A stretch of 64,000 bases of DNA from contig CAWFJP010000024.1 of the NCBI GenBank assembly GCA_963816145.1, positions 1 through 64,000 of the forward strand, read 5' to 3'. This DNA is from an uncultured delta proteobacterium (GTDB lineage Bacteria > Desulfobacterota > Binatia > UBA9968). The notes below the pieces were generated by a model. The model was given only the letters and a program-made list of their open reading frames with translations. It was not told the DNA's origin and made no database searches. The position numbers and the translations under genes are program-made. Within the stretch, counting starts at the first letter, position 1. Each line of letters opens with the position of its first letter. Positions 3,017-58,567 of the stretch are shown here, piece by piece.

Positions 3017-3036
3017 TATTGGACTTTGGTCCAATA
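3017..3036. promoter_or_regulatory. Palindromic regulator site upstream of mlaC-cls operon
   Basis: tattggac-tttg-gtccaata, perfect 8-4-8. Confidence 0.8.
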
Positions 3037-3396
3037 GCCTTTCCGCCCATGCGCCACATGCTCATTGCCGCAATTACCCACGAAAACAGCACAACTCATG
3101 CCACAAATTCCGGAGCTGCCTACGTCAGATAATTGTTGTTTCGAAAATAGCGATGCAGCGCATTTCCGATAATAGAGAAATATAAGGCGGCCTAATTGCC
3201 ACTTCCGCGAAAAGTTGTCTGCACGCCGATTCTTGTGTCTTTTATTCATCGACCGACACAACGACTCACTGCGGAGAGCCGATCTGTCGCGTCCCACCAG
3301 ATTCGGAACACGGATAAGAACGGCCATCAGCTCTGACTTATCCGGCCGGAATCTGTGTTCCGAATTCGCGGGACAGGACACATCCTCATCCCGATT

Positions 3397-3592
3397 TTTT
3401 CCGTCGACACTCGACACTCTTCCCTCGAGTGTCACGGTGACTTTTTCACAGGAAGCAACAGAGGAAACAGAGATAAAAAAATCTCTCTCTGCTCTCTCCA
3501 TTTGCTCCTGTATAAAAGATCCGAAAGGGTCGAGGGTCGGGTGTCGAGGCGAGGATCACTCGACACTCCTCCCTCGTCCCTCGTACTTCACC
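3397..3592. repeat. Composite REP-like element (TCGACAC/TCGAGGG heptamer family plus an ACAGAGGAAACAGAG…TGCTCCTGT hairpin)
   Basis: gggtcgagggtcgggtgtcga recurs at 8110 and 22705; the hairpin at 3442-3517 recurs at about 22640 and 30007. Confidence 0.7.
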
Positions 3593-4167
3593 CCTTGTCA
3601 GTGCGAAAACCCGCGCGCTCCTTGGACGGCGCCGAGAGCCGGCCCGAGCTACCGTTGAAGATTCGCACCTTCTCGAAGATAACGGCCGCGGGTGGATTAC
3701 CCTGGGCAAGAGCTGGCTAAGCGGCAATCCAGGCAGAGAAGAGCAGAGCGCTGAGTAGAAATTTGAAATGAAGCTGCATTGCTTGTGCGATTGTTACACG
3801 TCCGGTCACGGCACCCCCTGCAATAGTTGAAAGTCGTGCGCGCTGTCGGCGGCACGACCTCATGAATCACTTCGTGGTGAACCATGACCCAGCCAGCTGG
3901 AGTTGGGTTACTACTTTATCGGCTCCCAAGTCTTGTCCGTTTGCGCGAGCTAATCTGCGAATTTTTTCTGCCGCCGAGAACGTAGGTCGCTTGATCGAGA
4001 GTGACTCCCACCCACCGGGCGAACACCCTTTACAGGAGGCTCGACATGCGCCAGCTGAATCAGTTGCGCGAGATCCGTCGATCTGTCGCTCCCGTCGATA
4101 GACCGCCGGCAACTTCATCGACCCTCAGGGCATCGGTCCCGAGGCTTGCATCAGACTCTCTCGATGA

Positions 4168-4866
4168 CTACTGCTCATCGTCCGAGTCAAACACCAAGCG
4201 AGAGAACCAGCCGGCAATCACGGCGCCGACGATCGGCGCAACCCAGAACAACCACAGTTGCTCGATCGCCCAGCCGCCGACAAACAGCGCCGGCCCGGTG
4301 CTGCGCGCCGGGTTCACCGAGGTGTTGGTCACCGGTATGCTGATGAGATGGATCAACGTCAAACACAGGCCAATGGCGATGCCGGCAAAACCGGCAGACG
4401 CGCGCTTGTGAGTCGCGCCGAGGATCACCACCAGGAACATGAAGGTCATTACGATTTCGCTGACCAATGCGGCGCCGAAGCTGTACTTCCCAGGCGAGTG
4501 CTCGCCGAAACCGTTGGAGGCAAAGCCCCCCGCCAGCTCGAAGCCGGCTTTGCCGCTCGCAATCAGGTACAGCACGCCGGCTGCGACGATCGCGCCGCCC
4601 ACCTGGGCAATCACGTATGGCAGCAGTCTCGACGACGGAAAGCGGCCTCCGGCCCACAGTCCGAAGGAGACCGCGGGATTGAAGTGCCCACCGGAGATCG
4701 GGCCGAGCGCATAGGCGCCGGTCAACACGGTCAGACCGAACGCGAACGACACGCCGGTCAGGCCAATGCCTACTTCGGGAAACGCCGCAGCCAGCACCGC
4801 GCTGCCGCAGCCTCCGAGAACCAACCAAAACGTTCCGACAAATTCTGCAGCTAAACTTCGCGACAT
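4168..4866 (-). CDS. aqpZ: Aquaporin Z
   Basis: [10 protein letters not shown] and [13 protein letters not shown] motifs; [18 protein letters not shown]. Confidence 0.97.
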
Positions 4867-4997
4867 GACGTCACCTTCCTTTCTCTTTCACTGTTAAGCT
4901 TCTTCACTTATTTCACCTTCTTCATTTATGCAACTTCGCCGAGCGCCCAACGCTTGGTGGGTGTGTCTTAGACAATTTACTACCACCGGATCCCCGT

Positions 4998-8264: not shown

Positions 8265-8270
8265 AGTTTC

Positions 8271-14660: not shown

Positions 14661-15551
14661 TCACCTTCGTGCTGCGGCAACCTTTGATGGCCCGAGGTTT
14701 TGTGCTTTGAATTGAGCTTTGCGCCAGCGCATATACGGCATCGCCGCTAGGGCAGCCATTAATAAGTAGGCAACCACGATCGGCAGCGGCTTCGCGTTGG
14801 GAAAGTTCAACGATGCAATGAGCAAGCCCAGGGCGGGAAAACGAGTCGCACAGGCGAGCGCCAGAGTGGTGCGATCGTTTGGATCCGGTCCACCCAGGAC
14901 ATGGCCGACCGCCAATGAGGCAAGCGTCATCACAACGATGAGCAAAAACGCCGGCATGCCTATTCCAACAATAACGGAGAAATTGGTCGCCACAATCAGG
15001 AGAATCAGGACTAACAGGACGATACCTGCATAAGTGATGAGCGGCTCGCCGATGCGCTCGGCCAGCGTCGGCCAGAAGTAGCGCACGGCCATGCCGGCGA
15101 GGAGCGGCGCAAGAAACCCCGTCGCGATAACGGAAGCAACCTGGCCCGGAGGGACACTGGCGTCCCTGTGAAAGAACGCGCTTAGTGCGGCGAGCGAGAG
15201 CGGCACGGTGACGATCGCCAGCAGCGCCATAATAACGGCCAAACTGTAGACGTAGGGTGGGTTGGCGCCGAGCTTGAACAACTTCTTTGGCAGGGCTGGA
15301 GCGCCGGCCGAGATGGCCATCAGCAACACCGCAATTTTGACTGGCAAGGGCGCAGTGAAAACGAGCACCAGCAGCACGGCGATCAGCGGCGTCAGCACGT
15401 ACATCGCCAGCAGCGAGCGCGCGAGCAGTTGCGGCCTGTGCAGCAAGTAGGCGACGTCTTCCCAGGTCGCTTTGAGACCAAGGGCAAACACGGTGGAGAG
15501 TATGCATAGGCGCAGCACTAAGCCGATAAATTCGGCGACAGACAGGTCCAT
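14661..15551 (-). CDS. Bile acid:sodium symporter (SBF/BASS) family transporter
   Basis: Multi-TM; VFALGL…ARSLLAMYVLTP…SAGAPALP…GHVLGGP…LALACATR; start MDLSV. Confidence 0.8.
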   Translation of the reverse strand: MDLSVAEFIGLVLRLCILSTVFALGLKATWEDVAYLLHRPQLLARSLLAMYVLTPLIAVLLVLVFTAPLPVKIAVLLMAISAGAPALPKKLFKLGANPPYVYSLAVIMALLAIVTVPLSLAALSAFFHRDASVPPGQVASVIATGFLAPLLAGMAVRYFWPTLAERIGEPLITYAGIVLLVLILLIVATNFSVIVGIGMPAFLLIVVMTLASLAVGHVLGGPDPNDRTTLALACATRFPALGLLIASLNFPNAKPLPIVVAYLLMAALAAMPYMRWRKAQFKAQNLGPSKVAAARR

Positions 15552-16402
15552 GACAGCTCCTCTTCCTGAGGAATTCTTCTCAGTGCAGTTGGGGTTCGGG
15601 CGAGAAAGGCTCGATAAATCCCGAGAACGTCGTCGCTTTCGTTGTGTAAAAAATGTCCCACGCCAGGGACAATGTTGACCTCGCAATTAGGTATCTGGGC
15701 GGCGGCCAGGGTGATATCTTCTAAATCCATGACGGTATCCAGGGCGCCATTGATGATGAGGGTTTGGGCTCTGATGCTATGAAGATCGACGACTTCATCA
15801 ATATGCTTGGTAGATTGGAGCAACTCGCCGTGGGCATGAAAATTCTCCAGATGTTCCTTTGTGATGTTCTTAAATTGATCGTACATTTTCCGTTTGAAGG
15901 ATTCGTTTAGGTGCTGGCCGAAGTACTTGATGATGACGCCGGCCACCTGTTCGCCGGTGGCGGTGCCATTTAGTCGTTGGCCTTCTTTGATCGCCTGCAC
16001 CAACTTTTCGTTTACCCGGATGCCAAAACTGGCCAAGATGATTTTGTCGACCCAGTGAGGAAAGCGCGCGGCAAACGCGGCAACCACGACGCCGCCCCAA
16101 GAGGCGCCGGCAAGGATCGATCGATCCGGGCGATTTTGCGCGGCGAGAACTTGCTGTAAGACTTCGATCTGCTCATCTAAGCCAACCACAGACGAACCGG
16201 AGATGATTCGCGCGCGCCCCTGGCCGGGAAAATCGAAGAGCAGCAAGCGGTAGTCCTTGCAAAAATAGTTTACCACCGGTCTCCAGGCTGCCATGGTTTG
16301 CTGCGCGCCATTGACACAGACCAGCAATTGGCTGCCTTTACCGAAGAGCCGGTACGGGATCACAAATCTGCCGGCAGTGAGTTCGCCTCTAGTGATGTTC
16401 AT
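15518..16402 (-). CDS. Alpha/beta hydrolase
   Basis: FDFPGQGR; nucleophile elbow GASWGG; GALD; GVGHFLH. Confidence 0.85.
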   Translation of the reverse strand: MNITRGELTAGRFVIPYRLFGKGSQLLVCVNGAQQTMAAWRPVVNYFCKDYRLLLFDFPGQGRARIISGSSVVGLDEQIEVLQQVLAAQNRPDRSILAGASWGGVVVAAFAARFPHWVDKIILASFGIRVNEKLVQAIKEGQRLNGTATGEQVAGVIIKYFGQHLNESFKRKMYDQFKNITKEHLENFHAHGELLQSTKHIDEVVDLHSIRAQTLIINGALDTVMDLEDITLAAAQIPNCEVNIVPGVGHFLHNESDDVLGIYRAFLARTPTALRRIPQEEELSWTCLSPNLSA

Positions 16403-16408
16403 ATTCAG

Positions 16409-17044
16409 TCAGCGAGCAACACCGCGATAGCAGCAACGCCGACAGCGTTTCGGAATAGTAATTTCATTTGGCATCCCTACTAACAGGAATGAACCTAGCG
16501 AATGTGACAAAGTCCGTCTATTGTACTTTGGTACATGTCCTTTGGTACAAGTACCGCCGCCGGCATGGGTCGAACATCGATGGTTCTCATGCGCACAAAC
16601 ATCCCAGGTGTCGTCCTGGCGGCGTTGTCCGGAAATTGCGTCGGCTGGCGCTACCGCCCGCCGGACGGCCTGCAGTAGCGAGCTGCCAGGAAACGGTTTG
16701 CGTAAATAGGCAACACATCCCGTGCGGCGCGCTCGCTCACGAGTCTCAGGCTCGTCAAGAGCTGTGATGAAAATGATCGGCGGAACCGCACCTGTAGCGG
16801 CGAGACGTGTCTGCAAATCGAAGCCGGACTCCCGGCCGAGATGAATATCGAGCACCAGGCAATCCACCCGCGCGCGGCTTGCATCTTGCCAGAACGCTTC
16901 GGACGTCAAGTAACTGAGCGAATGAAAACCAGCGGCGCGCAGCAAGCGCTCGAGCGCGCGGCAGACGCTGGCATCGTCATCGACAATCACGACGTTTATT
17001 TTGTTTGGGGTCATTTGCAGTCGCGCGCTTTGGAAGAGATGCAC
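16409..17044 (-). CDS. Single-domain response regulator receiver; the C-terminal ~80 aa are probably read-through
   Basis: VVIVDDD…CLVLDIHL…IIFITA…YLRKPF; the domain ends at about 16640. Confidence 0.8.
   Translation of the reverse strand: MHLFQSARLQMTPNKINVVIVDDDASVCRALERLLRAAGFHSLSYLTSEAFWQDASRARVDCLVLDIHLGRESGFDLQTRLAATGAVPPIIFITALDEPETRERARRTGCVAYLRKPFPGSSLLQAVRRAVAPADAISGQRRQDDTWDVCAHENHRCSTHAGGGTCTKGHVPKYNRRTLSHSLGSFLLVGMPNEITIPKRCRRCCYRGVAR
16519..16552. promoter_or_regulatory. Two overlapping degenerate palindromic sites upstream of the hydrolase
   Basis: tattgtac-tttg-gtacatgt and acatgtcc-tttg-gtacaagt; TAGGTT on - strand at 16497-16492. Confidence 0.65.
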
Positions 17045-17075: not shown

Positions 17076-17095
17076 TATTGTACTTCAGTACAATA
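17076..17095. promoter_or_regulatory. Palindromic regulator site upstream of the receiver gene
   Basis: (tc)tattgtac-ttca-gtacaata(ga), perfect; TATCCT on - strand at 17054-17049. Confidence 0.8.
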
Positions 17096-17210: not shown

Positions 17211-17834
17211 TTATGGCGCTGGCTCGATGCCCAGTTCTTGAGCGAAGCGGACAAGTTCAGCGACAGATTGCACGTTAAGCTTGTCCATGATGCTGGCCCG
17301 GTGCGCCTTGATGGTGCGTTCCGTGATGCCCACGTCGAAGGCGATTTGCTTGTTCAGTTTGCCACTAATAATGTGAACCAGCACCTCGCGCTCCCGGGCG
17401 CTGAGCGTATCGAAGCGCGCGTGTAAGGCGCGCGCGTGCGTGCGTCGACGGCGCTGCTCGGCCTCCAGGGAAAACGCCCGTTCTATGGCCTCAAACAAGA
17501 TCTGTTTCTTAACCGGTTTGCTGAGAAAATCCACTGCCCCGTGACGCATGGCGCGAACGCTAGTGGGAATGTCGCCGTGTCCGGAAAGGAAAATAAGCGG
17601 CAAGGGACTGTTCTGTGCAACCAGCAAGGCCTGCAAATTGAGGCCGCTCTGCCCAGGCATGCGCAGATCCGTCACCACGCAGCCGGCGGTGTCGGGTGTG
17701 AGGCGTTTAAGCAAATCGGCCACGGTGGTGAAGGTTTGCACAGTGTAGCCACCAGCACGAAGCAGGCGGGAGACAGCGGTGAGGAATGACGAGTCGTCAT
17801 CGACGACATAAACAGTGGCAATTGGCGAGGGCAT
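17211..17834 (-). CDS. FixJ/LuxR-family DNA-binding response regulator
   Basis: VYVVDDD…TDLRMPG…SGHGDIPTSVRAM…LSAREREVL…LNKQIA…TIKAHRASIMDKL. Confidence 0.93.
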   Translation of the reverse strand: MPSPIATVYVVDDDSSFLTAVSRLLRAGGYTVQTFTTVADLLKRLTPDTAGCVVTDLRMPGQSGLNLQALLVAQNSPLPLIFLSGHGDIPTSVRAMRHGAVDFLSKPVKKQILFEAIERAFSLEAEQRRRRTHARALHARFDTLSAREREVLVHIISGKLNKQIAFDVGITERTIKAHRASIMDKLNVQSVAELVRFAQELGIEPAP

Positions 17835-17835
17835 G

Positions 17836-17925
17836 GGTGATCGGTGATCAGTTATCGGTTAACAGTAAACGGTTATCAGTCTCGTAGTTACTGACCCCTG
17901 TTCACCGATCTCTGTCCCCCCCACT
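17836..17925. repeat. Heptamer-armed element (GGTGATC/AGTTATC family) overlapping the kinase 3' end
   Basis: ggtgatc-ggtgatc-agttatc-ggttaac-agtaaac-ggttatc … tactgac-ccctgtt-caccgat-ctctgtc. Confidence 0.65.
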
Positions 17926-19817
17926 GGAAGCGTGAACCTGAACGTCGCGCCGCCGTCAGGATTGTTCTCCGCCCAGATGCGTCCGCCATGGGCTTCGAGA
18001 ATAGTCTGCGAGATGGCCAATCCCATGCCCATGCCTTCAGGCTTGGTCGTATAAAACGGCTCAAACAACTGCGCCATGGCGTCCGGCGCAATGCCGCGAC
18101 CGTAGTCGGCAACCGCCACTTCGACGACGCTGTCTGCGCTAAGACGAGCGGTTACCCGTATGCGGCGGCGCGCCTTCGGGCAATCATTTGAACTGTCCAT
18201 GGCGTTGAACAGGAGGTTGAGCAGCACCTGCTGCAAATGCACGCGGTCACCGCGTACCAAGGGCAGATCGGGCTCAAGTCTAGCTTCGATCGCGATGTCG
18301 CGCGCGAGGGCCGCGTTCTGCACCAAGATGACAACTTCATCGATCAGCTCGCCGATGGCTAGGTTGCTCAATTTCAGCTCTCGCCGCTCGAGCAGTGCCC
18401 GCATGCGCTGAATGATATCGCTGGCACGCTCGTCGTCCCTGCGGATGTCGGCGAGAATCGCGCGCAACTCCTCCCAGGCAGGTGGTTGGGTCTGGAGGAT
18501 AAGCTCCGCTGCCTCAGCGTTGCTGAGAATCGCTCCGAGCGGCTGATTCAGTTCGTGCGCCAGTGTGGTGGTGAGCTGACCCATGGTTGAAATCCGGCTT
18601 GCGTGTGAAAGTTCGTGCTGTAATCGCTGTACTTTTACCTCCGCCCGCCGGCGGCGCACGCGCTGTCCCACGAGGCCCGCGATCAACAGCGTCTGCACCG
18701 CACCGATGGCAACCGCTGCGATAACATACCAACGGTACTGCTCCCACATCGACGGCGTGCGGAACTGAACCACGCTGCCGGGCGGCAGCCGGCGCTCGCT
18801 GATGCCCCAGCGCCGAAGCGCGCGCCAGTCGAACATCGGCACGCCTTGGGTGCGGATTTCAAATGGCAATGAAGCCGGCGCGGCGCCATTAAGAATGCTG
18901 TGGGCGAGCTCACCGGCTCTTTTCCCCAAGGCTTCGAGACTAACCACAGACCCGCCGACATGCCCTCTGCCGATGCCGATGTCAAACAAGTTATAAACCG
19001 GAACGTTGGCTGATTTCGCAATCATCTCGGCGACCTGTCCACGAACAAACGCCTCGCCGGCCGAGTCCCGCAACATGCTAGCAAACAGAATCGCCGTGCG
19101 CGCCGGCATGGACCCTACCGCCCGTGGCACCTCGGCAAAAGTTAGGTTGGTTAAGAACTCAAACTCGACTTTTCCGGCCAACGGCCGGGCAGCTGTTTTA
19201 GCGCGGTCAACGTAGGTACGGTCCAACGCCGAGGTGCCGGCAACCATCACGATGCGGCGCGTTTCGGGTTGAGCCTTCATGATCAACTCCATTGTCCCGC
19301 GCAGATCAGCGCGGGCAAACACCCCGGTGACGTTGGCGCCCAGGCGCTCGCGCGGAACCTCTTCTTCGCCAATGACGCCGAAGGTGACGAGCGGCAAATC
19401 AGGGAAAAGGCTTCTCGACAATGTTTCGACCAGCTCAAAGTTTCGCGAATAATTTACGATGAGCAGATCGGGGGGACGCTGGGCATATTTCTCGCGCAGG
19501 TAAAGGTCGAACCGGCGGCGATCGCTTTCGCCGGGGAAACGGCTGGTGTCGAGATATTCGGAGTAGAACTCAAACCGGCCCGAGAGGAGTTTTTGTAGCG
19601 TATCCTGCACGGAACGCTCGACCAGCATAGTGGCCGGGAGAAAGCGGTTTTCCGGTGAAATTATAAGAATGCGCCGCGTACGCTCGGCCCCTTCGACGCT
19701 GCTTGCAACAATCAGAAAAAGCACCACGCAGAGTGGGTTTAGCCAGTCCCACGGGCGCGATCGGGGCTCTAAAATGGCATTTTTTTGCGCTTCGTCCATG
19801 CATCTCCTAAACCGCAA
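17859..19817 (-). CDS. Sensor histidine kinase (FixL-like HisKA/HATPase) with a periplasmic ABC-substrate-binding-like sensor
   Basis: LAHELNQPL H-box, LQQVLLNLLFNAMD, DYGRGI, GMGMGLAI; TM at WYVIAAVAI; no PAS domain. Confidence 0.92.
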   Translation of the reverse strand: MRFRRCMDEAQKNAILEPRSRPWDWLNPLCVVLFLIVASSVEGAERTRRILIISPENRFLPATMLVERSVQDTLQKLLSGRFEFYSEYLDTSRFPGESDRRRFDLYLREKYAQRPPDLLIVNYSRNFELVETLSRSLFPDLPLVTFGVIGEEEVPRERLGANVTGVFARADLRGTMELIMKAQPETRRIVMVAGTSALDRTYVDRAKTAARPLAGKVEFEFLTNLTFAEVPRAVGSMPARTAILFASMLRDSAGEAFVRGQVAEMIAKSANVPVYNLFDIGIGRGHVGGSVVSLEALGKRAGELAHSILNGAAPASLPFEIRTQGVPMFDWRALRRWGISERRLPPGSVVQFRTPSMWEQYRWYVIAAVAIGAVQTLLIAGLVGQRVRRRRAEVKVQRLQHELSHASRISTMGQLTTTLAHELNQPLGAILSNAEAAELILQTQPPAWEELRAILADIRRDDERASDIIQRMRALLERRELKLSNLAIGELIDEVVILVQNAALARDIAIEARLEPDLPLVRGDRVHLQQVLLNLLFNAMDSSNDCPKARRRIRVTARLSADSVVEVAVADYGRGIAPDAMAQLFEPFYTTKPEGMGMGLAISQTILEAHGGRIWAENNPDGGATFRFTLPVGGTEIGEQGSVTTRLITVYC

Positions 19818-22639: not shown

Positions 22640-22870
22640 TTTACAGGAGGAAACAGAGGCTTCTTCGAAATCAATCTTGTTATCTCCGTTTGCTCGGTGA
22701 GAGAGGGTCGGGTGTCGAGGGGGGGGAGCGAAACGCGAGGTCGAGGGAACGAGAACCGCAACATCAGCTCTCTTAGTTCCTTGCTCCCTCCGAGTTCCAT
22801 TTTCACTCGACACTCGACCCCCTCGTTCTCGTCCCTCAACCCTTCCCTCGACCCTCGTCACCCGTCACTC
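22640..22870. repeat. Composite REP element between the GH63 relic and GH13 (duplicated at about 30007-30235)
   Basis: About 165 bp gcgaaacgcgaggtcgaggg…cccacttgctc identical to the 30090-30260 copy. Confidence 0.8.
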
Positions 22871-23283
22871 TTTCCCTTCTCCGCCCACTTGCTCCCTTAC
22901 AACCCGGGCCAAGCACGCGCCCGCGCTCGGATTCCAACGCGGCTTTAGCATCGACACGCCCGAAGATGTCCAGGAGAGGAGCGACCAGAGCCGTCCAGCC
23001 TGTCTGGTGGCTGGCCCCAAGCCCCGCACCGTTGTCACCGTGAAAATATTCGTAAAACAAAATCAGATCGCGCCAATGCGGATCGTCCTGGAACTTGGTC
23101 AGCATCAGCAGCAGCTGCTCCTTGGCGAAATCGAAATCCACCAGCGAAAGCGCAATGGTATGAAACGCCAGATCCCAGGCCGCATACCAGGGGTGTTCCC
23201 ACCTGTCCGGCATCGAGATCACGTCGGCATTGAGCATGTGGAACCACTCGGTATTACGCATGTCGTGGCGGGCCGATTCGAGC
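22862..23283 (-). pseudogene. Internally deleted copy of the GH63 glucosidase
   Basis: ESARHD…[16 protein letters not shown]…; equals 31602-31780 joined to 30231-30461 of the intact gene. Confidence 0.9.
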
Positions 23284-23306
23284 TTCGCCTCAGCGGCCCA
23301 CGGAGT

Positions 23307-23400
23307 TGCCAAGAACGCAGCTCGGCCGCGTCGTCTTGATCAGCTCGCCGCTCACCGGCTGGTCGCGCCGTGGAGAGTACCGGTGAACTTGAAGGAAGGC
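23307..23400 (-). pseudogene. Degenerate C-terminal remnant of an arylsulfatase
   Basis: PSFKFTGTLH…VSGELIK/DDAAELR (2 indels), cf. PPFHFTGAIKRVIVDVSGEHVEDYQAQMR of 5714..8068. Confidence 0.55.
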
Positions 23401-23420
23401 TATTGGACCTTAGTCCAATA
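23401..23420. promoter_or_regulatory. Palindromic regulator site
   Basis: tattggac-ctta-gtccaata, perfect. Confidence 0.8.
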
Positions 23421-23477: not shown

Positions 23478-23497
23478 TATTGGACTAAAGGGCAAGA
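23478..23497 (+). promoter_or_regulatory. Degenerate palindromic site in the opposite orientation
   Basis: tattggac-taaa-gggcaaga; TACTTT at 23518 on +. Confidence 0.5.
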
Positions 23498-34432: not shown

Positions 34433-34452
34433 TATTGGACCTTGGTCTAATA
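34433..34452. promoter_or_regulatory. Palindromic regulator site upstream of LOG
   Basis: tattggac-cttg-gtctaata; TACGGT on - strand at 34411-34406. Confidence 0.75.
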
Positions 34453-38104: not shown

Positions 38105-38124
38105 TATTGGACTTTGGTATAGTA
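38105..38124. promoter_or_regulatory. Palindromic regulator site upstream of the symporter
   Basis: tattggac-tttg-gtatagta. Confidence 0.6.
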
Positions 38125-38255
38125 TGTTCGTGCGGCAAATGGCTAGCCCTATGCGGGCTGTTGAATACCTGGGCCTCACCGAGCTGGCAGCGAGACCCAG
38201 TAAAACTTCGCCGTCCGCGCGCGTTCACATCGTTCCCTTCGCATGTTCAGGGTAG

Positions 38256-38338
38256 GCTCTATCCTCCCCCGCGACGCGGGGGAGGATAGAGGTGGGGGTT
38301 TGAACGATTGGCACGGTTTGAACGGCTGGAACGGCCTT
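38256..38338. repeat. REP-like hairpin plus TTGAACGG nonamer repeats downstream of xfp
   Basis: ctctatcctcccccgcg-a-cgcgggggaggatagag; ttgaacgat-tggcacggt-ttgaacggc-tggaacggc. Confidence 0.7.
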
Positions 38339-38344
38339 TTCCAA

Positions 38345-40711: not shown

Positions 40712-40943
40712 TGCTTCCTCCTATTTAATTCTTCCAGAGTTTCGCGGCGCGCCGCGAACTTATCCCCTGTCGATTGCTAACGATGCGCATACTCATCGCG
40801 CCGCAGTCGTGAAGTTTGCGGCTCTTAAGTTATTGTACTTGGATTTTTTCGCGCGATCCTCCGCTGCTTCTTAAGCGTTGTTTGCGCCATACCGTGGTCC
40901 CTCTCCCAATCACAGTTTCTAACAAACATCGTCGACCCAGCTC

Positions 40944-40963
40944 TATTGGATCTTGGTCCAATA
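40944..40963. promoter_or_regulatory. Palindromic regulator site upstream of xfp
   Basis: tattggat-cttg-gtccaata; extra half-site tattgtac at 40831. Confidence 0.75.
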
Positions 40964-41346
40964 CCAACTCTGGGGTAACTTTCCGCTCCTGTGATGCCGA
41001 GACGATCGGCGATTTCGCAGCCGTGAAATTCATTCACCGCAAAACCCACGCCACCATTGCACGATGGTGGAATCACTTGGAACACGGAAATTTGAACTAA
41101 AGATCAGAAAACCACGTGGCAGAACTGAAACAACATTGTTGCAAATTTCACCCGGGCGATAACGGCCCGACTTTGAAGTTGGACCCGGTGCTGGCACAAA
41201 ATTACATTGCCAGTCTACCTTGCTTGCCGCGACGTCACCAAAGCGAATCGGACTCTGCATTGAACTCTGGGTGTCGTCCCTCCTGCGGAACTTTAATTAG
41301 CTGCGCATCGATGACGTGAGATTGCGGCATACCGGTTCGTTCAGAA

Positions 41347-48797: not shown

Positions 48798-49709
48798 TCA
48801 CTTGCCGGCATTCAACGCCCGTTTCGCCGCCGCCAGTTCTTTCAACTTTGCCTCGCTGACTTTCGGATATTTCAGATCGAGCTCGGCCAGCGCATCGATG
48901 ACGGCGGCCGCGACCACCACGCGGGTAAACCACTTGTTGTCGGCGGGCACGACGTACCACGGCGCGTCTTTCGTCGCGGTGTTACGAATCATATCTTCGT
49001 AGGCGTCCATATAATCGTCCCAGTATTGGCGCTCCTTGGCGTCGTTAGCCGAGAACTTCCAGTTCTTCTCGGGCTCTTCGATGCGCTCGAGAAAACGCTT
49101 CTTCTGCTCTTTGTTGGAGACATGCAGAAAGAACTTGAGGATGGCGACACCGTTGCGCGTCAGGTAGCGCTCGAAGCTGCGGATGTCCTGAAAGCGGTCT
49201 TTCCAGACATCCTTGGTGATCAGGTCGGGCGGGATTTTTTGATGTTCTAAAAACTCCCGGTGCACCCGCACCACCAGGGTTTCCTCGTAATAGCTGCGAT
49301 TGAAAATGCCGATGCGGCCGCGCTCGGGCATACACTTGATACAGCGCCAGAGGTAATCATGGTCGAGGTCTTCGCTGGTCGGCGCCTTGAAAGAAAAAAC
49401 CTGGCAGCCCTGCGGGTTGACCCCGGACATGACATGCTTGATCGCGCCGTCTTTGCCGGCGGCGTCCATCGCTTGGAAGATCAGCAGCACGGCCCAGTTG
49501 TCCTGGGCATAAAGCATGTCCTGAAGCTCGGCCAACACCTCGGTGCCCATGGCGAGCGCTTCCTTGGCGCGCGGCTTGTCCTCGGATGTCAAATCGAGGG
49601 TATCGCCGGGGTCGATGTCCTTCAGGCGGAATTTGCCATCGGTCACGCGGAAAGGCTTGGCGAGCTTGCGCGCGTTCTTGATTAATTTCTTCATATCTTT
49701 GTTGTTCAC
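48798..49709 (-). CDS. ppk2: Polyphosphate kinase 2 family (class III-like)
   Basis: FQAMDAAGKDG Walker A; FNRSYYEE; WYVVPADNKW. Confidence 0.93.
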   Translation of the reverse strand: MNNKDMKKLIKNARKLAKPFRVTDGKFRLKDIDPGDTLDLTSEDKPRAKEALAMGTEVLAELQDMLYAQDNWAVLLIFQAMDAAGKDGAIKHVMSGVNPQGCQVFSFKAPTSEDLDHDYLWRCIKCMPERGRIGIFNRSYYEETLVVRVHREFLEHQKIPPDLITKDVWKDRFQDIRSFERYLTRNGVAILKFFLHVSNKEQKKRFLERIEEPEKNWKFSANDAKERQYWDDYMDAYEDMIRNTATKDAPWYVVPADNKWFTRVVVAAAVIDALAELDLKYPKVSEAKLKELAAAKRALNAGK

Positions 49710-49732
49710 AGAGTTGCCTCCTGGTTAATCAG

Positions 49733-50656
49733 TCAGTCTTTTTCGTTTGCCGTTTCGGTGATGGTCGGCAGCCGCAGGGTCTCGTCGGATTCGCTGCCAA
49801 TCTTAATCTGTTGATTCTCTGGCGACTCCATCGCCAGGCGAAATACGTTCTCGATCTCGTTGGCTTGGCGGCTGCGTTCCTTCTCCACTTCCGCCAAGAG
49901 TAACCGCACCGCTTGCATCTCGTTCAGTAAAACCTCCGGACGCGCCAGCGCTTCGGCAACCGCTCGGTGGAACACTTGGCGGTCGTGCCAGACGCCGAGA
50001 GCTTCTTGCAAAGCAGCCAACCATTTGAGCTGCGGCTTAAAGTGTTTGGCACCGACATCGTAAAGCAGCTCCGTCCGGTACCGTAAAACTTTGGTGGCGA
50101 TGCGCAGCCGGTGCAGGTCGTCGGCCGCGCGAGTGCTCCGTGCCTGGGTCAAGCTCGACTGCCAGGCGATCTGCGCTTCTTGCACGCTAGCACCGAGCCG
50201 CTGCATCAGAATCTCCGGGCTTTCATCGCTGGCCTGTCGCACCACCCTTTGGGCTCGGGCCGCGTACTCTCCAAGGTCTTCGCGCACCACTCTCTTCGAC
50301 GCGCGGGCAACCTCTTTCGTGCGTTTCTGTAATAAGTAGTCGCGGATACCGGTCCAGGCTTGCCGCTTGGCCACGCTGCGCGTGCGGCGCTGCTCCTGCG
50401 CGACGATCTCGAGCAGGACATCGAAATTGCGCCATTTACCGAGCGCGCGCCGAATCCGTCGAGGTGTTCGCCGCAAGCGCCGCACCTTGGCCGGACGTGG
50501 CTTGGCAAAGAAGGCATCGAGCGCCTGTTGGAAACGCCGGCTCCAAACGCGCGCGTCATGGATGGTTTTTGCTTCGGCGTTGGCGCGAATTTCCGGCGCC
50601 AGCGCGACGAACTTCTTCAGCCGGCTCCGCAGTAAGCGTGACAGCGCGCTTTGCAT
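49733..50656 (-). CDS. CHAD-domain (polyphosphate-binding) protein
   Basis: IHDARVWSRR; LHRLRIATKVLRY; LQEALGVWHD. Confidence 0.88.
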   Translation of the reverse strand: MQSALSRLLRSRLKKFVALAPEIRANAEAKTIHDARVWSRRFQQALDAFFAKPRPAKVRRLRRTPRRIRRALGKWRNFDVLLEIVAQEQRRTRSVAKRQAWTGIRDYLLQKRTKEVARASKRVVREDLGEYAARAQRVVRQASDESPEILMQRLGASVQEAQIAWQSSLTQARSTRAADDLHRLRIATKVLRYRTELLYDVGAKHFKPQLKWLAALQEALGVWHDRQVFHRAVAEALARPEVLLNEMQAVRLLLAEVEKERSRQANEIENVFRLAMESPENQQIKIGSESDETLRLPTITETANEKD

Positions 50657-50797
50657 GGCCGCGGCCTCAGGTGGTTGGCGTCGCCGCCGCGCCGCCGCGG
50701 GTTGCGCCTCGCCAGACCGGGGCTTCAGGCGGTGGTTGATTATCTCCTTCCACGATCTTTTCTTTCACCCAGCGAGGCGTCCAATGGGCCAGGCTGT

Positions 50798-51301
50798 TCA
50801 ACGCGCCAGCAACCGTAGATGCTTCGGCGCCAGCGCCCACTGCAGCACCGCGCTCTTGCGCGGCGCAACGGCGTCCACTTCGAGGCAGCAGAGCCCGCCC
50901 TTTTTCAGCTGAATTTGCGCCCCTGCCTTTTCTGACAATAAAAAAGAAACCGTGCTGCTGAGCAGCGGCTCATGACCCACCAATAGGATTTGTTCCTTGC
51001 CCGCGTATGCGGCCAAGCCGGACAAGAGGTCGCGGACCGATCGGTCGGGGCCGAGCTGCTCGAACTCCTCCAAGCGGTCCTCCAGCTGCAGCGCCTGGGC
51101 GACGATTTTTGCCGTCTGGCGCGCGCGCTCCAACGGACTGGTGAGAATTCGGTCAAAAGACAGTGAGAGGGTTATGAGCCCTCGCGCTTCTTTGTGAATT
51201 CTTTTGATCCCCTTTGGGGTCAGCGTTCGTTGCCAATCATCCGAGCTTTTGCCGGTGGCGCGGTCCGCCGCAATGCCGTGACGCATAAAGTACAGATTCA
51301 T
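50798..51301 (-). CDS. sixA: Phosphohistidine phosphatase SixA
   Basis: LYFMRHGIA; RTLTPKG; TSPLERARQTA; LLVGHEP. Confidence 0.9.
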   Translation of the reverse strand: MNLYFMRHGIAADRATGKSSDDWQRTLTPKGIKRIHKEARGLITLSLSFDRILTSPLERARQTAKIVAQALQLEDRLEEFEQLGPDRSVRDLLSGLAAYAGKEQILLVGHEPLLSSTVSFLLSEKAGAQIQLKKGGLCCLEVDAVAPRKSAVLQWALAPKHLRLLAR

Positions 51302-52208: not shown

Positions 52209-53605
52209 TTACGGTTGCCATCCGCCACCGAGGGCGCGGTACAGTTGGACCACACCGATGAGTTGCAAACCGCGCGCTCTTGCCAGTTCGAGCTCGGCAT
52301 TGAAGAGATCCTGATCAGCGATCAAAACCTCGAGATAGTTCGAGAAACCGGCGTCGTAGCGCAGCCGCGAAAGACGGCTGGAATTTTGCAACGCGGCCAC
52401 CTCCGATTCTTTCTCGGCCCGCAGGTCCTTAAGCTTGTCAAGGCTGACCAACGCATCGGCGACCTCGCGGAAGCCGTTTTGCGCGGCCTTCTCGTATTGC
52501 GCGAGCGCCTGGTCAAAGCGCGCCTTGGTTCCTTCATAGTTCCAGAATAGACGCCAGCCCTGGAAAATCGGTTGGAAAAAACCGCCGGCAACCGACCAAA
52601 TCTGCGCCCGCTTGTCGAAGATGTTGGAGAAGTCGTGACTGTTGCCGCCAAGCGCGCCGCTCATGGAGAAATTGGGAAAGAACAGTGCCTTCGCCGCGCC
52701 GATATTGGCGTTGGCGGCCACCAGCAACTGCTCAGCGCTTTGCACGTCAGGCCGCCGTTCGAGCAACGCCGACGGCAAGCCGGCGGGAATGGCGGGCGGA
52801 TAATATTCGTCGGTCAACACGGCGCCGCGCGGAATCGCGCCGGGATTGCGCGCGAGCAGAAAATTGATCAGGTTTTCCTGCTGGGCGATGCGCCGTTCGA
52901 GATCGGGAATCACCGCCGCGGTGCGGGCGCGATTGGCCACCGCCTGTTCCACTTCGAGCCGGTTGGAAACCCCGGTTTCATAGCGGCTGCGGTAAAACCG
53001 CACCGTGTCGTCATTGAGCTTGAGCGTGCGTCTGGTGATCTCAAGCTCGAGATCGAGCTCACGCAAAAGTAAATAAAACTGCGCCACATCGCCAACTAGC
53101 GCGATGTAGACGCCGCGCCGGTCCATTTCGCTGGCCTCGTAGACGGCTTTGGCAGCTTCCGCTTCGCGGCGGATCCGGCCGAAGACATCGACCTCCCACA
53201 CCATGCCGAACCCGCCGAACCAGTTTTGCCATGAGCGGTTGGCGCCGTCGGATTGGGAAGGATCGGTGGCCCGGGAAACCTGCTGGGCGCTGCCGCCGCT
53301 GTTAAGGTTAAAGCTCGGGTAAAGAAACGAGCGCGAAACGCCAACCTGCGCCCTCGCCTCTTCCACCCGCGCGGCGGCGGTGCGCAGATCATAGTTGTTC
53401 TTCAACGCTTCGCGGATCAGCTCCTGCAGCACCGGATCCCTGAAGATTTCCCACCACGGCATATCGGCCAGCGAATCGGCCGCCGGCGTTCCTTGCAGGC
53501 CGCGGTAATTCTCCGGGGTCGATACTGACGGACGCTGGTAGTCCGGACCCAGCGTGCAACCGGTGAAATACAAGAAATAAGACCAGCGCAATCCGTAACG
53601 CCATG
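52209..53605 (-). CDS. RND efflux outer-membrane lipoprotein (NodT family)
   Basis: TGCTLGPDY; LLERRPDV; LYRALGGGW; possible frameshift in the signal peptide. Confidence 0.9.
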
Positions 53606-56600
53606 TTAGTGAGGTCCTCCTGACGGATTGTGAGCTTCGGAAGGAGCGGCGTGAATCTCGGCCGGTCCGGGCGCAGGGCTTTTCTTCTTCGCGAAGCGAC
53701 GAATTACGTCGTAAAACACCGGTGTAAAGACCAGACCGAAGAAAGTTACACCGAGCATGCCGCTGAAGACCGCCACGCCCAAGGCAAAGCGCATCTCAGC
53801 GCCGGCTCCTTTGGCGACGACCAGCGGCACCACGCCGAGGATGAAAGCGAACGCAGTCATGAGAATCGGCCGCAGGCGCACGCGCGAGGCTTCGACCACG
53901 GCGTCGACGCGGCTCTTGCCCTCGTCTTCGAGCTGCTTGGAAAACTCGACGACGAGAATGGCGTTTTTAGCGGCCAGACCGATCAGTGTGATCAGACCGA
54001 TTTGGGTAAAAATGCTGTTATCGAGTTTCATAAAGTTGACGCCGATTAATGCGGCCAACAGACACATCGGCACGATCAGCAGAATGGCAAAGGGCAACGA
54101 CCAGCTTTCGTATTGCCCCGCCAGAACCATAAAGACGAACAGCACGGATAACGGGAATATGATCTTGGTCAGGAAATCCTTCTCGGCGAGGATCTGCTGC
54201 AGCGACAGCTCGGTCCACTCGAAGCCCAACCCGGACGAGAGCTGCTCGCCCACCAACTTCTCGCTGGTAGTGATCAGTTGGCCGGAGCTCACTCCAGGCG
54301 CTGGAATAATATTCACCTCGGCGGAAGGATAAATGTTGTAATGGTTGACGATCGCCGGGCCGCTGGTGGTTTTAACTTTGATAAACGTGTCCAGAGGCAC
54401 GCGGTCACCGGCGCCATTGCGCACTTCCAACCGGCCTATGTCCGGTGTTTTATCGCGAAAGCTCGGATCGGCCTGCACGTTGACCTGCCAGTTGCGCCCT
54501 TGGAAGGAAAAATCGTTGACGTAAATCGAGCCGAGATAAGTCTGTAATGTCGTATTGATCTCGTCGAGAGAGACATTTTGCGCCTTGGCTTTTTCACGAT
54601 CGATATCGACAAACAGTTGCGGCTGGGTGACGCCGAAGGAAGTGAACATACCGGCAAAGGTCGGATCGCGCTGGCCCGCTTCGACGATCGATTGGACACC
54701 ACCCTCCAAGGTCCTCAGTCCGGCGGCGCGCCGGTCTTGAACGTGGAGTTTCGATCCACCCGTGGCGCCTAGCCCATCGATCGGCGGGGCGTTGAAGATG
54801 CCGATGCGAGCTTCCTGGAAGCCGGCAAGTTTCTTGCGCAACTCCACGGCAATCTCGTTGGCCCCCAGTCCCGGGATACCGGCGCGCTCTTCGAAGGGAT
54901 CGAGGATCACGAACATGCCGCCGATGTTGCTGATGTTGGTGCCCAGCAAGATTGAATAACCCGGCACGTCGATTGAGTAAGCGACGCCCTTGGTTTTGCG
55001 CGCCACTTCGCTGATCTGCGCGATCATCTTATCGGTGCGCTCCAGGCTGGCGCCTTCCGGCAGCTGGGCGTTGAGAACCAAATAACCCTTGTCTTGTTCC
55101 GGGATAAAGCCCTTGGGCGTTACGTTGAAGCCCCAGACCGTCAGCGCCAACAGACCGCCGTAAATAACCAGCACGATAAAACCGACCCGCACGAGGCTGC
55201 GCACGATCTTACCGTAGCCGTTGGCGAGACGATCGAAAAAGCGGTTGAACACGCCGAGAAACAAACCGATGCCATGGTTGATCGGGCTCCTGAACATCCA
55301 GCCCACCCCGGTGCCCACTGCGAACACGCCGAGACGCACCGCCCAAAGACCCCATTGCGAAGTTTGGTGCACCGCTTCGGCTTCGGCGCCGTGAGCCGGC
55401 GCAGCCATGCCCAGGAGCGCCAGCACATGGGGCGTGACATAGTGATAGACGATAAAACCGACGAGGGCGGCAATCCCCTGCGGCGGCAGGGCATCGCGGT
55501 GATGTCCCGGGGTGTGCGGCTTGATCAATGTAACGGCGCGCGCCGGCGCCATGGTCATCGCGTTGATCGCCGAGATAATGACTGAAACCGCTATGGTCAA
55601 AGCGAATTGCCGGTAGAACTGTCCCGATATTCCCGCCAAAAACGCGGTCGGCACGAACACCGAGCTCAACACCAGCGTGATCGCGATGACCGGCCCGGTA
55701 ATCTCGTCCATCGCCTTGATGGTCGCTTCGCGCGCCGGCATCCCCGTGGACATCCATCGTTCGATGTTTTCGACGACGACAATGGCATCGTCGACGACAA
55801 TGCCGATCGCCAGAACCAGACCGAATAGCGTCAGGTTGTTGAGCGAAAATCCCATCACCGCCATTATCGCGAGCGTGCCGATCAGCGACACCGGCACGTC
55901 GATCATCGGCATCAGCGTCGCGCGCCAATCGCCCAAGAAAATCAGCACGACGATAAACACCAGCACAAAAGCTTCGAACAAAGTCTTGTAAACCTCGTGC
56001 ACCGATTCGTTGACAAACACCGTCGTATCGTAAACGATCCGGTACTCGACTCCTTCAGGGAACCGGCTCTTCAGTTCCGCCATCTTGGCTTTAATCTGCT
56101 CGGCGGTCTCGAAGAGCGTTGGCGCCGGGCAATTGAAAAACCGCCAGGGTTGCGGCCGGCAACCTGTTCTCTTTGGAGCCGAGGTAGCTATTGACGTCGT
56201 AGTTCTTGGCGCCGAGCTCGATGCCGCGCAGAATCATCTTGCCGTCTTTGTCGTATTTGCTGTCGCTGACGACGTCGCGCAAATAGACGATCTGCCCCTG
56301 TTTGCCGGTCTTGATGATAATGTTGTCGAACTGCTCTTCAGCGGTGAACCGGCCTTGGGTATTGATCGGCAACTGGAACGGCACCGACGAGCCCTGGGGC
56401 ACCGGCGGCTGGCCGATGCGGCCGGCGGCCACCTGCACGTTTTGCTCTTTGATCGCGCTAATGACATCGCTCGCGGTCATTTGACGGGAAGCGAGTTTGG
56501 TCGGGTCGAGCCAGACGCGCATGCTGTAGTCGCGCGCGCCGAGGAAAGTCACGTCGCCGACGCCTTTCACGCGCGCCAGATCGTCCTTGATATTCAAGGT

Positions 56601-57074
56601 GGCGAAGTTGCTCAGATAGAGTTGATCGTAGCGCCCGTTGGGAGAGACCAAATTAACCACGAGCAGGATGCTTGGCGATTTTTTCTTGGTCGAGATGCCG
56701 AGCCGTTTGACCTCTTCGGGCAGCTTCGCTTCGGCGATCGCGACGCGGTTTTGCACCAGCACTTGCGCGGCGTCGAGATCGGTCCCGAGCTCGAAGGTCA
56801 CATCGAGCGTCAACTGGCCGTCGTTGGTGCTGCGCGAAAACATGTAGAGCATGCGCTCGACGCCGTTCACCTCTTGTTCGATCGGCTGGGCGACGGTCTC
56901 GGCGACCGTGACGGCGTTGGCGCCCGGGTACGTCGCTGTCACCTGAATTGTCGGCGGCACGACTTCGGGATACTGCGAAATCGGCAGCTGCGTCAGCGCC
57001 ACCAATCCGATGAGAACGATCACCAAAGAAAGAACCGTTGCGAAAATCGGACGGTCAACAAAAAATTCGGCCAT
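53606..57074 (-). CDS. HAE1 RND efflux permease, frameshifted at about 56110
   Basis: FFVDRPIFA; GIVVDDAIVVVEN; GLAAKNAIL; RLRPILMT. Confidence 0.92.
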
Positions 57075-57109
57075 AGCTGGACTCTCTATTATTTACCGGC
57101 AAAGGGTCA

Positions 57110-58390
57110 TTAATGGGCTTTGGCCGCCGGAGCCGGTTGAGGCTCAGTGGTTTTGGCCTGGGCGATCGGCTTGCCTGAATTGTCCATCGGTTCGACCGGG
57201 TTGTTGATGCGCGCGCGTTGCAGACCGTTAACGATTACCCAATCGTTCGGCTTGATTTCCTGGCCTTTATCCGCGGCGCTTGCGACCCGCATGCCGTCTT
57301 CGAGCAATCGTCCGGGTTTGATGTCGCGCCGGAAAACTACATTCTGATCATTGATCAGTAACAAATATTTTTTGTCCTGGTCGGTAAGAACGGCGGTATC
57401 CGGAACCAACACCGCCTGGTAAGCGTCGCCGAACGGGATGCGCACCCGCACGCGGGACCCGGGAACGAAACGGCCCTGCGGATTGGCCACCACCCCGCGC
57501 ACCTGGATGGTTCCGGTCGCGTTATCGACGCGGTTATTGGCGAAATCCAGCACACCTTTGTTCGGGAAGCCGTCGTCGCTGTCGAGGCCGAAGTTGAAGG
57601 GAAACTTGGGCGGGGCGCCGGTCTTTTGCCGCGCCCTTTCCTGATTAGTTTTCATGTAGCGCTGCAGCGAGCGCTCATCGATATTGAAATAGAGAAAAAT
57701 CGGGTCAATCGACACAATGGTCGTTAGAACCGGATCATTACCGCCGGCGCTTACCAGATTGCCGACCGTCAGCTGCGCTCGGCTGACCCTGCCGCCGATC
57801 GGCGCGGTAATCCGCGCGTATTCGACATCCAACTCTTTGCGCGTGATCTCCTGCCTCGCCGCTTCCACCTGGGCTGCCAGGGATAATGCGCGCGCTTCGG
57901 ACTTATCGGCTTCGGTCTTGCTGACCGCGCCTTCGCCGACCAGTTGTTTCATGCGCTCGTAATCCCGGTCCGCGGCGACTTTCTGCGCTTCTACGACCCG
58001 GAGCTCGTCACGGGCGCGCCCGACCTCGGCTTCGAACGGCCGCGGGTCGAGCTGGAACAGCAAGTCGCCCTTCTTGACGATTTGACCGTCGGTAAAGCCG
58101 ATCTTGGCGATATGGCCGCGCACCCGCGAACGCAGGTCGACATTCTCCGCGGCTTCGAGCCAGCCGTTGTAATTGTCCTCGTCGACCAGGGTGCGGGTTT
58201 CCGGATGGGCCACCGTAACCTTGGGCGGCGCCGGTGGCGGCGCCTCGGTTTTCTTCGAGCACGCAACCCCGGCCGCCAGAAAAAGACCGGCGATCAGCGC
58301 CGCCGGCTTGCCACGCCAGCGCTTGTCCCAGAAGTTAACATTTTTGGCATTCACAGTGATCCCCCAAATTTTGGCATAGTGCGGTTTCAT
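57110..58390 (-). CDS. RND membrane fusion protein
   Basis: VACS lipobox; VDLRSRVRG; ITAPIGGRV; VDNATGTI. Confidence 0.92.
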   Translation of the reverse strand: MKPHYAKIWGITVNAKNVNFWDKRWRGKPAALIAGLFLAAGVACSKKTEAPPPAPPKVTVAHPETRTLVDEDNYNGWLEAAENVDLRSRVRGHIAKIGFTDGQIVKKGDLLFQLDPRPFEAEVGRARDELRVVEAQKVAADRDYERMKQLVGEGAVSKTEADKSEARALSLAAQVEAARQEITRKELDVEYARITAPIGGRVSRAQLTVGNLVSAGGNDPVLTTIVSIDPIFLYFNIDERSLQRYMKTNQERARQKTGAPPKFPFNFGLDSDDGFPNKGVLDFANNRVDNATGTIQVRGVVANPQGRFVPGSRVRVRIPFGDAYQAVLVPDTAVLTDQDKKYLLLINDQNVVFRRDIKPGRLLEDGMRVASAADKGQEIKPNDWVIVNGLQRARINNPVEPMDNSGKPIAQAKTTEPQPAPAAKAH

Positions 58391-58547
58391 ATCTCAGACA
58401 GCTCTTTATCGATCGAAGCCGATCACGGCGCGTTAAGTCGCCGCGGCTTGCTGCCGGGTGGTTCACTCTTAGAGCTCCCCCGGCATAGGCAAAACCTCGA
58501 CTTCTTGTAATTAACGATATTTATTATCGAATTTCTTCGACACTGTA

Positions 58548-58567
58548 CATTGGACCTTAGTCCAATG
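58548..58567. promoter_or_regulatory. Palindromic regulator site upstream of the RND operon
   Basis: cattggac-ctta-gtccaatg, perfect; GATAAT/TAATAA about 20 nt downstream on -. Confidence 0.8.

Follow-up and report, generated by a model that had tools for sequence, protein, structure and literature searches.

A conserved 20-base palindrome upstream of about nine promoters in a Candidatus Binatia genome and its most likely FixJ-type readers

Introduction

The question raised by this locus is which regulator reads a 20-base palindrome that recurs upstream of genes in a 64-kb stretch of DNA (the window: positions 1-64000 of contig C24, in a genome of 7.82 Mb and 31 contigs whose RpoB is 97-98% identical to proteins labelled Candidatus Binatia bacterium at NCBI). 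A sequence-only reading of the window had described nine such sites as an island-wide, uncharacterised regulon and had assigned the whole set to the regulator encoded at 17211-17834 and its kinase. Here we report that the palindrome, hereafter the box, is a genuine and conserved regulatory site that precedes about nine promoters, and that it is most likely read by regulators of the FixJ type, mostly by a sister regulator encoded on another contig (C23) and not by the neighbour. The regulon is real and conserved, and its mechanism is of an ordinary kind, namely a regulator dimer at a class II position.

Results

The box in the window and in the genome

All nine sites listed by the sequence-only reading were found where it had placed them. 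Exact matches to TATTGKAC-N4-GTMCAATA lie at 3017, 17076 and 23401, and none appeared in 100 shuffles of the window; with up to three mismatches allowed, the window holds nine copies against 0.14 ± 0.43 expected, a number that none of the 100 shuffles reached. The earlier count of four perfect 8-4-8 repeats was correct, the fourth being 58548, a perfect inverted repeat with C...G ends. The half-sites (arms) fall into two types, GTAC at 16519, in its duplicated arm and at 17076, and GGAC/GTCC at the other seven sites. The copies are given below with the genes downstream and the promoter elements, whose distances are counted from the end of the box.

3017..3036, minus strand: GGAC-type box, exact; mlaC (2335-2937) begins 79 nt downstream, and a PLD/cardiolipin-synthase gene (738-2288) comes next; the -10-like ATATAA/TATAAA misses the 21-nt spacing by one nt.
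16519..16552, minus strand: GTAC-type box with a 14-nt internal tandem duplication, 116 nt upstream of an alpha/beta hydrolase gene (15518-16402); -35 TAGACG, -10 TAGGTT at exactly 21 nt.
17076..17095, minus strand: GTAC-type box, perfect palindrome with spacer TGAA, 119 nt past the regulator stop and upstream of a single-domain receiver gene; -10 TATCCT at 21 nt.
23401..23420, minus strand: GGAC-type box, exact, 88 nt upstream of a 158-aa open reading frame (ORF; 22836-23312); an amylase-like gene and a DUF502 gene come next on the same strand, with the kinase and regulator genes after them; -10 TACTCT at 21 nt.
23478..23497, no strand assigned: degenerate copy with a perfect left half, a poor right half and a reversed spacer, without a -10 signal.
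34433..34452, minus strand: GGAC-type box; a LOG/TIGR00730-family gene (33549-34271) begins 161 nt downstream, then DUF2934 and GH63-like genes; -35 TAGACA, -10 TACGGT at 21 nt.
38105..38124, minus strand: GGAC-type box with two mismatches, 293 nt upstream of a gene for an SDF symporter fused to a solute-binding protein (SBP; 35674-37812); weak TGCACT at the place of the -10.
40944..40963, minus strand: GGAC-type box; the phosphoketolase gene xfp (38345-40711) begins 232 nt downstream; a TA-led hexamer one nt away from the 21-nt spacing.
58548..58567, minus strand: GGAC-type box, perfect palindrome whose ends are C/G; an RND efflux operon (57110-58390, 53606-57074 and 52209-53591, minus strand, named by Pfam/NCBIfam) begins 157 nt downstream; -35 TGTACA, -10 TAATAA at exactly 21 nt.

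Two entries of the earlier list need revision. The second site claimed at 16533 is a product of the tandem duplication inside the 16519 box; the minus strand of 16519-16552 contains GTAC CAAAG GACAT GTAC CAAAG TACAA, in which the duplication splits an otherwise near-perfect single GTAC-type box. The site at 23478, 77 nt from 23401 centre to centre, is present but has only one good half and a spacer in the opposite direction. As to the earlier remark that no site was noticed in a well-supported coding domain, the 16519 box does sit within the receiver ORF, in its 3' tail beyond the Pfam domain, and 3017, 38105 and 40944 lie in ORFs without a family match.

The whole genome contains 6, 11, 17 and 44 copies at 0, up to 1, up to 2 and up to 3 mismatches, respectively. 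The 17 copies at up to two mismatches are distributed over C24 (8), C23 (5), C9 (2), C14 (1) and C29 (1), which places 13 of the 17 on C23 and C24, together 2.5% of the genome; the copies on C14 and C29 have no AA/TT centre and look like chance matches. Apart from 16519 and 17076, the genome has no good GTAC-type copy with a YAAR spacer. The term "island-wide" was too narrow in scope, as the same box occurs on C23, on C9 and across the genus. An origin of the box as a mobile repeat was rejected: beyond the 20 bp only promoter positions are kept, with the exception of the 34433/38105 pair, which is a local duplication. The description of the regulon as uncharacterised agrees with our literature search, in which queries with the arms plus "response regulator" and with exact 16-mers found no account of the box in the searchable literature, subscription journals, RegPrecise and CollecTF being outside its scope.

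Promoter geometry

To describe the surroundings of the box, we pooled 69 unique copies from this genome and related loci, many of them orthologous, and oriented them by the central AA. Downstream of the box, 64 copies have G or T at +1, 40 have A at +2, 48 have C at +3, 51 have T at +22, 48 have A at +23 and 38 have T at +27, and positions +16 to +20 are CTTCG-like, whereas the mirrored upstream side of the same copies is flat, without comparable signal. This one-sided conservation means that the central AA predicts the direction of transcription; in this genome, all strong AA/TT-centred copies have a co-directional ORF 20-490 nt downstream. The downstream pattern reads as a -35-like TAKACA that overlaps the box by 2 bp and is separated from a TAnnnT -10 element by a 17-bp spacer. 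Given this fixed phase to the -35-like and -10 elements, the box would span about -53 to -34, with its centre near -43.5, and the centre position proposed earlier is supported by the 69 copies.

In detail, the earlier geometry needs small corrections. A TAnnnT hexamer exactly 21 nt past the box holds for 16519, 17076, 23401 and 34433, and 58548 has its TA-led hexamer at exactly the same distance; 3017 and 40944 are off by one nt and 38105 is weak. The claim of an oriented, mostly YAAR spacer is right as to orientation, with 17076 (TGAA) and 23478 (reversed) departing from it.

The same geometry bears on whether the box could be a repression operator, with the bound regulator obstructing RNA polymerase at the -35. 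Box and -35-like hexamer have 2 bp in common, and basal activity is plausible because this hexamer is fairly near consensus at several promoters (TAGACA, TGTACA, TATACA). The -10 elements, however, are weak (TAnnnT only), as expected for activator-dependent promoters, and the strict -10 phase puts the centre of the box at the position from which DosR (about -43.5; PMC13486717) and phosphorylated StyR (about -40; PMC2442086) are reported to activate transcription. We therefore consider repression improbable and activation the better description of what the box would do.

Two regulators and two half-site classes

The genome encodes eight GerE domains, and two kinase-regulator loci share the order kinase, regulator, box and receiver, one in the window and one on C23 (box at 57805). 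The genes concerned are as follows.

17211..17834, minus strand: FixJ/StyR-type response regulator with the helix ERTIKAHRAS (Pfam Response_reg and GerE).
C23:57916-58557: paralogous FixJ/StyR-type regulator with the helix EKTIKVHR (Pfam Response_reg and GerE).
17859..19817, minus strand: histidine kinase whose FixL-like core is preceded by a periplasmic ABC_sub_bind-like domain and a membrane segment; the PAS array of its C23 paralogue is missing.
16409..17044, minus strand: single-domain receiver gene (Pfam Response_reg, residues 18-128), the predicted first target of the 17076 box.

The window and C23 regulators are 48% identical, and both consist of a receiver domain and a GerE helix-turn-helix. 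Their best solved relatives over the full length are StyR (1yio; E 1.4e-52 and 3.5e-58) and FixJ (5xso), which together with the Pfam domains supports the earlier classification of the window protein as a regulator of the FixJ/LuxR type. An Asp before RMPG (D56 in the window regulator, D53 in the C23 regulator) and the Lys of KP (K106 and K103) align with StyR and FixJ; from knowledge of the family we take them to be the phospho-acceptor Asp and the conserved Lys of the receiver domain. The FixJ equivalog model NF006900 gives 195.7 bits for the window regulator and 216.8 bits for the C23 regulator, both under its cut-off of 255, and more than 7,900 public proteins match the C23 regulator at E 1e-30.

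The box accompanies this kind of regulator. Within the genus, 14 loci carry an orthologue of the C23 regulator (57-100% identity, its own locus included), and a GGAC-type box follows the regulator stop in all 14, at 7-232 nt in 13 of them and at about 500 nt in the remaining one (G005:C295). Outside the genus, one collection scan gave 26 loci with relatives 43-65% identical; the box (up to three mismatches) lies directly after the regulator gene in eight of them, and a receiver-like gene comes next in all eight. The metagenome-assembled genomes (MAGs) that hold these eight loci are labelled Thermodesulfobacteriota (2), Acidobacteriota, Nitrospirota, Hydrogenedentes, Phycisphaerales, Sedimentisphaerales and, in one case, unclassified.

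Recognition helix and half-site change together. Regulators with the helix xEKT[IV]KVHR pair with GGAC/GTCC arms, and those with xERT[IV]KAHR pair with GTAC-type arms in four of four loci, namely the window (GTAC/GTAC), G005:C104 (GTTC/GTAC), G020:C256 (GCAC/GTAC) and a Sedimentisphaerales locus (GTAC/GTAC). A FastTree tree of 42 regulators places the Sedimentisphaerales protein beside a GGAC-class protein and far from the window clade, and because of this position in a different clade the helix/half-site switch arose at least twice. One of the differing residues, V174 in the C23 regulator and A177 in the window regulator, aligns with Val176 of StyR. One StyR paper names Lys175, Val176 and His179 as putative DNA-reading residues (PMC5874301).

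An assignment of every box to the regulator at 17211-17834 and its kinase does not agree with these pairings, since relatives of this regulator adjoin GTAC boxes and seven of the window sites are GGAC. As judged from the sequences, the window regulator is the candidate reader of the GTAC-type boxes, and the seven GGAC boxes probably answer to the C23 regulator, so that the earlier choice of regulator probably holds only for the two adjoining GTAC boxes.

The contrary view, that the window pair is the sole cognate system and that GGAC and GTAC are strong and weak variants of one operator, appears unlikely to us. It draws on the facts that 17211-17834 is the only such regulator in the window, that three copies of the box flank it and that it shares a subfamily with the C23 regulator at 48% identity. 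In addition, the GGAC box at 23401 may drive an operon that ends in the window kinase and regulator genes, as terminators in between are no more frequent than by chance (7 found against 7.7 expected). Nevertheless, a close relative of the window regulator occurs in only 3 of the 31 genus genomes (G000, G005 and G020) whereas boxes occur in 23, two helix residues change in step with the arms that adjoin window-type and C23-type regulators, and this genome offers a sole GTAC reader no other good GTAC-type copy with a YAAR spacer. A further comparison concerns the hydrolase gene: its orthologue in G044 (78% identical to window 15518-16402) has a perfect GGAC box and no local kinase-regulator pair, whereas the window has GTAC at that place.

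Conservation across the genus and beyond

Scanning the genome and its relatives, as the sequence-only reading had proposed, bore out the motif: in addition to the 17 copies in this genome, the box at up to one mismatch is present in 23 of 31 genus genomes, with 1-20 copies each, and the reversed control matches one of the 31, once. In G018, 19 of the 20 copies lie inside 510-662 kb of one contig. The genes downstream of boxes in G018 and G044 that are also seen downstream of boxes here are those for the receiver, an OprB porin, a DUF4410 protein, a GH63-like protein, MlaC, cardiolipin synthase and the hydrolase; others include a molybdopterin oxidoreductase operon, as well as fumarate reductase in G044. 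Five module-bearing genomes of other phyla have 1-5 matches at up to two mismatches, mostly after the regulator, with 1-2 in the reversed control, and the large regulon is therefore special to this genus. The unpublished genome G005 contributes 1 of the 4 GTAC-class loci, 1 of the 14 GGAC-class loci and its 10 boxes.

Several arrangements of boxes in these genomes are recorded here for their own sake. In G044:C12:1-20000, one box precedes the molybdopterin oxidoreductase operon (with Fe-S and NrfD subunits), which adjoins an MtrB/PioB porin and multihaem cytochromes, and a box also precedes a sodium:sulfate-family symporter gene and a fumarate reductase-fumarase cluster. Divergent genes at G018:C14 have two boxes between them, at 651362 and 651390; these are spaced by 28 nt, face opposite ways and make up a back-to-back promoter pair. 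On C23, boxes at 41894 and 42086, 192 nt apart, lie upstream of a gene for a 1040-aa PAS-containing sigma-54 activator, which suggests a regulatory cascade. As to where the organism occurs, 17 DNA runs labelled wetland, soil or sediment, among 24 runs listed, contain over half of the words sampled from 33400-41200; RNA-labelled runs with sampled words have shares of only 0.07-0.08.

Evidence against the assignment and the search for another reader

A number of findings weigh against the assignment of the boxes to the two paralogous regulators. Many of the 69 pooled copies and of the genus loci are orthologous, and their counts therefore overstate independence. Among the 14 extra-genus loci with at least 55% identity, seven have the box, six have no adjacent box and one is unscorable (the weak 4-mismatch match at L089 was scored as no box, and the contig of L100 ends inside the regulator gene). 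The GTAC class comprises four loci, one from the unpublished G005 and two with one imperfect arm (GTTC, GCAC), and either regulator may, on sequence grounds, bind both box types. Nine genomes have boxes and no C23-type orthologue. In five genomes with 4-11 boxes each (up to one mismatch), neither regulator type was found at E 1e-25; the five, with their completeness, are G044 (99%, 20 contigs), G006 (99%), G045 (92%), G011 (88%) and G042 (84%). The GerE domains found in G044, G006, G045 and G011 are not of this kind, the helices having been read in G044 and G006 only. G045 has a fragmented kinase orthologue followed directly by a box, with no regulator gene, and G011 has a box-bearing receiver gene without a regulator within 420 nt.

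Missing assembly is a plausible account of these absences, because the boxes of all five genomes are placed either at the ends of contigs or on contigs that are short or frameshifted; only 276 nt separate the G044 island from the end of its contig, and the G006 boxes are found in the first 5 kb of theirs. The G044 island also encodes a 91-aa LuxR-type protein with a NarL-like helix unlike either class, and a cNMP-binding protein without a DNA-binding domain adjoins one of the G044 boxes.

The five genomes are also an argument for a factor outside the FixJ/StyR clade that would read the GGAC boxes, in which case the box after the regulator merely puts the receiver into that factor's regulon. 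In G044, a homologue of the C23 sensor (40% over residues 13-802) stands beside two NarL-like regulators with the helix KT[VI]ETHR. Regulators of the KTVETHR type were rejected as readers, however: they occur in two box-less genomes (G014 and G021) and were not found in the box-rich G002, G011, G043 and G042, and over the 31 genomes their presence tracks the boxes worse than that of the C23-type regulator. A CRP/FNR operator was rejected as well. The FNR consensus is TTGAT-N4-ATCAA, with 14 bp between its outer arm ends; the TTG...CAA arms here span 16 bp, and no gene of the CRP/FNR family turned up among the window proteins scanned. As an unrelated factor would leave both the multi-phylum adjacency of regulator and box and the covariation of helix and half-site unexplained, we regard it as quite improbable.

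Kinases and receiver

Besides a periplasmic domain and a FixL-like core, the C23 kinase (1270 aa) has a PAS array, one member of which is of the haem type. The window kinase corresponds to the C23 kinase minus about 600 residues of PAS domains, with 43% identity over the first 398 residues and 48% over the kinase core. FixL is the top NCBIfam model for both cores, below its cut-off, and the Pfam domains found in the kinases are PAS, HisKA and HATPase, with no GAF. One stretch of the C23 kinase (residues 770-890) can be aligned with the haem PAS domains of EcDosP and FixL (E 1e-12 to 1e-14), including a His in the column of their proximal His, which we take to be the column of the haem ligand; haem binding by this domain is putative. 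As the PAS matches haem PAS domains and the His is aligned, an oxygen or redox signal for the C23 kinase is a tentative suggestion to which we give somewhat less than even odds.

The receiver gene likely starts at the ATG at 17014 and not at 17044. Its ORF extends past the domain by a Cys/His-rich tail of about 80 residues (16409-16650), which also contains the next promoter, and just before the hydrolase start there is a short frame for a signal-peptide-like 20-mer, followed by a stop.

Duplications and neighbouring genes

The surroundings of the boxes at 34433 and 38105 are similar over about 100 nt (34390-34490 and 38060-38165), the 38105 flanks duplicating the 34433 promoter, and contigs of two metagenome runs link 34282 directly to 38083, skipping 3800 nt. 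For these two reasons, the symporter cassette looks like an insertion/deletion polymorphism between duplicated promoter copies. The symporter gene itself has a counterpart at C23:12278-14440; both genes (712-720 aa) encode a sodium:dicarboxylate-family symporter fused to a family-3 solute-binding domain and lie in box-bearing regions, and a third copy of the fusion is found in G045.

Within the efflux operon, the RND transporter gene (53606-57074) consists of two ORFs (327 and 825 aa), both ACR_tran and 7 nt apart, owing to a frameshift, a stop or an assembly error. A polyphosphate module at 48798-51301 encodes PPK2, a CHAD-domain protein and a histidine phosphatase in a row and has no box of its own. 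The remaining genes of the window are listed by their Pfam and NCBIfam families.

Minus strand throughout: aquaporin, three sulfatases, DUF2092, transporters and the PPK2-CHAD pair.

Discussion

We propose that the box is the operator of a dimeric FixJ/StyR-type regulator at a class II position, served by two paralogous pairs that divide GGAC and GTAC boxes between them, and we assign this joint reading a probability of roughly 0.6. The element TATTGGAC-YAAR-GTCCAATA would be bound by a dimer of the response regulator, which, centred near -43.5, would activate a sigma-70-type promoter from the class II position. The C23 pair would read the GGAC-type boxes, which number seven in the window, one elsewhere on C24, two on C9 and at least five on C23. 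The window pair (17211-19817) would read the GTAC-type boxes at 17076 and 16519 and would therefore control only the neighbouring receiver gene and the hydrolase operon. The ancestral module may be the one seen in several phyla, kinase, regulator, box and single-domain receiver, in which the receiver would probably act in feedback or as a phosphate sink. In this genus, the box would have spread to about 10-20 promoters of envelope lipid, transport, sulfatase, phosphoketolase and efflux genes.

The system resembles StyR and DosR in its way of working, yet it is neither, as its arms differ from those of StyR and its regulator stands outside the DosR branch. The StyR/TodT box of Pseudomonas is given as ATAAAC-N4-GTTTAT in PMC5874301, and the likeness extends to the 6-4-6 palindrome with its AC-N4-GT core, to the combination of receiver and GerE domains, to StyR being the nearest solved relative of both regulators, and to Val176, the putative DNA-reading residue of StyR, with which the Val/Ala position separating the two classes aligns. 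In contrast, the arms here are TTGGAC or TTGTAC, and the kinases are built unlike StyS and TodS, combining one kinase core with a periplasmic ABC_sub_bind-like domain and, in the C23 kinase, a PAS array. The targets also differ from those of StyR and TodT, as they are not aromatic catabolism genes and comprise many promoters instead of one or two.

With DosR (DevR), which governs the dormancy regulon of Mycobacterium tuberculosis, the system shares a 20-bp palindrome whose inner part, GGACY-AA-RGTCC, is nearly the inner GGGACT...AGTCCC of the DosR box, as well as a multi-operon regulon and a sensor kinase that is haem-based in DosR and has a putative haem PAS here. The DosR box is described as lying beside a suboptimal -35 with GGGACT as the read-out motif (PMC13486717), and a consensus string containing GGGACT...AGTCCC appears in PMC2703886 and PMC2275270. 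However, the outer arm bases differ and DosR belongs to another family branch. Membership in the DosR group was rejected, as no DosR chain is among the 24 solved relatives at E 1e-10 and the kinases are without GAF. DosR kinases use GAF domains, not PAS. Among the proteins scanned there was no universal stress protein and no product of an hspX-type gene.

The likeness to FixL/FixJ of rhizobia and Caulobacter lies in the FixL-like kinase core and the FixJ-like regulator, for which these are the top NCBIfam models, below cut-off, in the haem-type PAS with its aligned His in the C23 kinase, and in the single-domain receiver gene that would be under the control of the system, as with FixT. FixT has a feedback role under FixL/FixJ control. 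The differences are that the regulator here seems to serve 10-20 promoters itself and not through a CRP/FNR-type FixK, and that the kinase has an added periplasmic domain.

A wider reading, which we put forward as doubtful but worth stating, would be that a phylum-crossing cassette became a DosR-like low-oxygen or redox regulon of 10-20 promoters under a haem-PAS kinase, and that a PAS-less duplicate re-tuned its helix (K to R, V to A) and half-site (G to T) to form an insulated sub-regulon, the same re-tuning having occurred independently in a planctomycete.

To our knowledge, Candidatus Binatia has no cultured member. For this group, the box, its promoter phase and its regulator together provide a concrete and testable regulatory code, and a widespread, unstudied clade of FixJ-like regulators is now linked to a DNA motif. 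The two helix/half-site classes constitute a natural specificity switch that is testable by two point mutations and bears on how duplicated two-component systems are insulated from each other.

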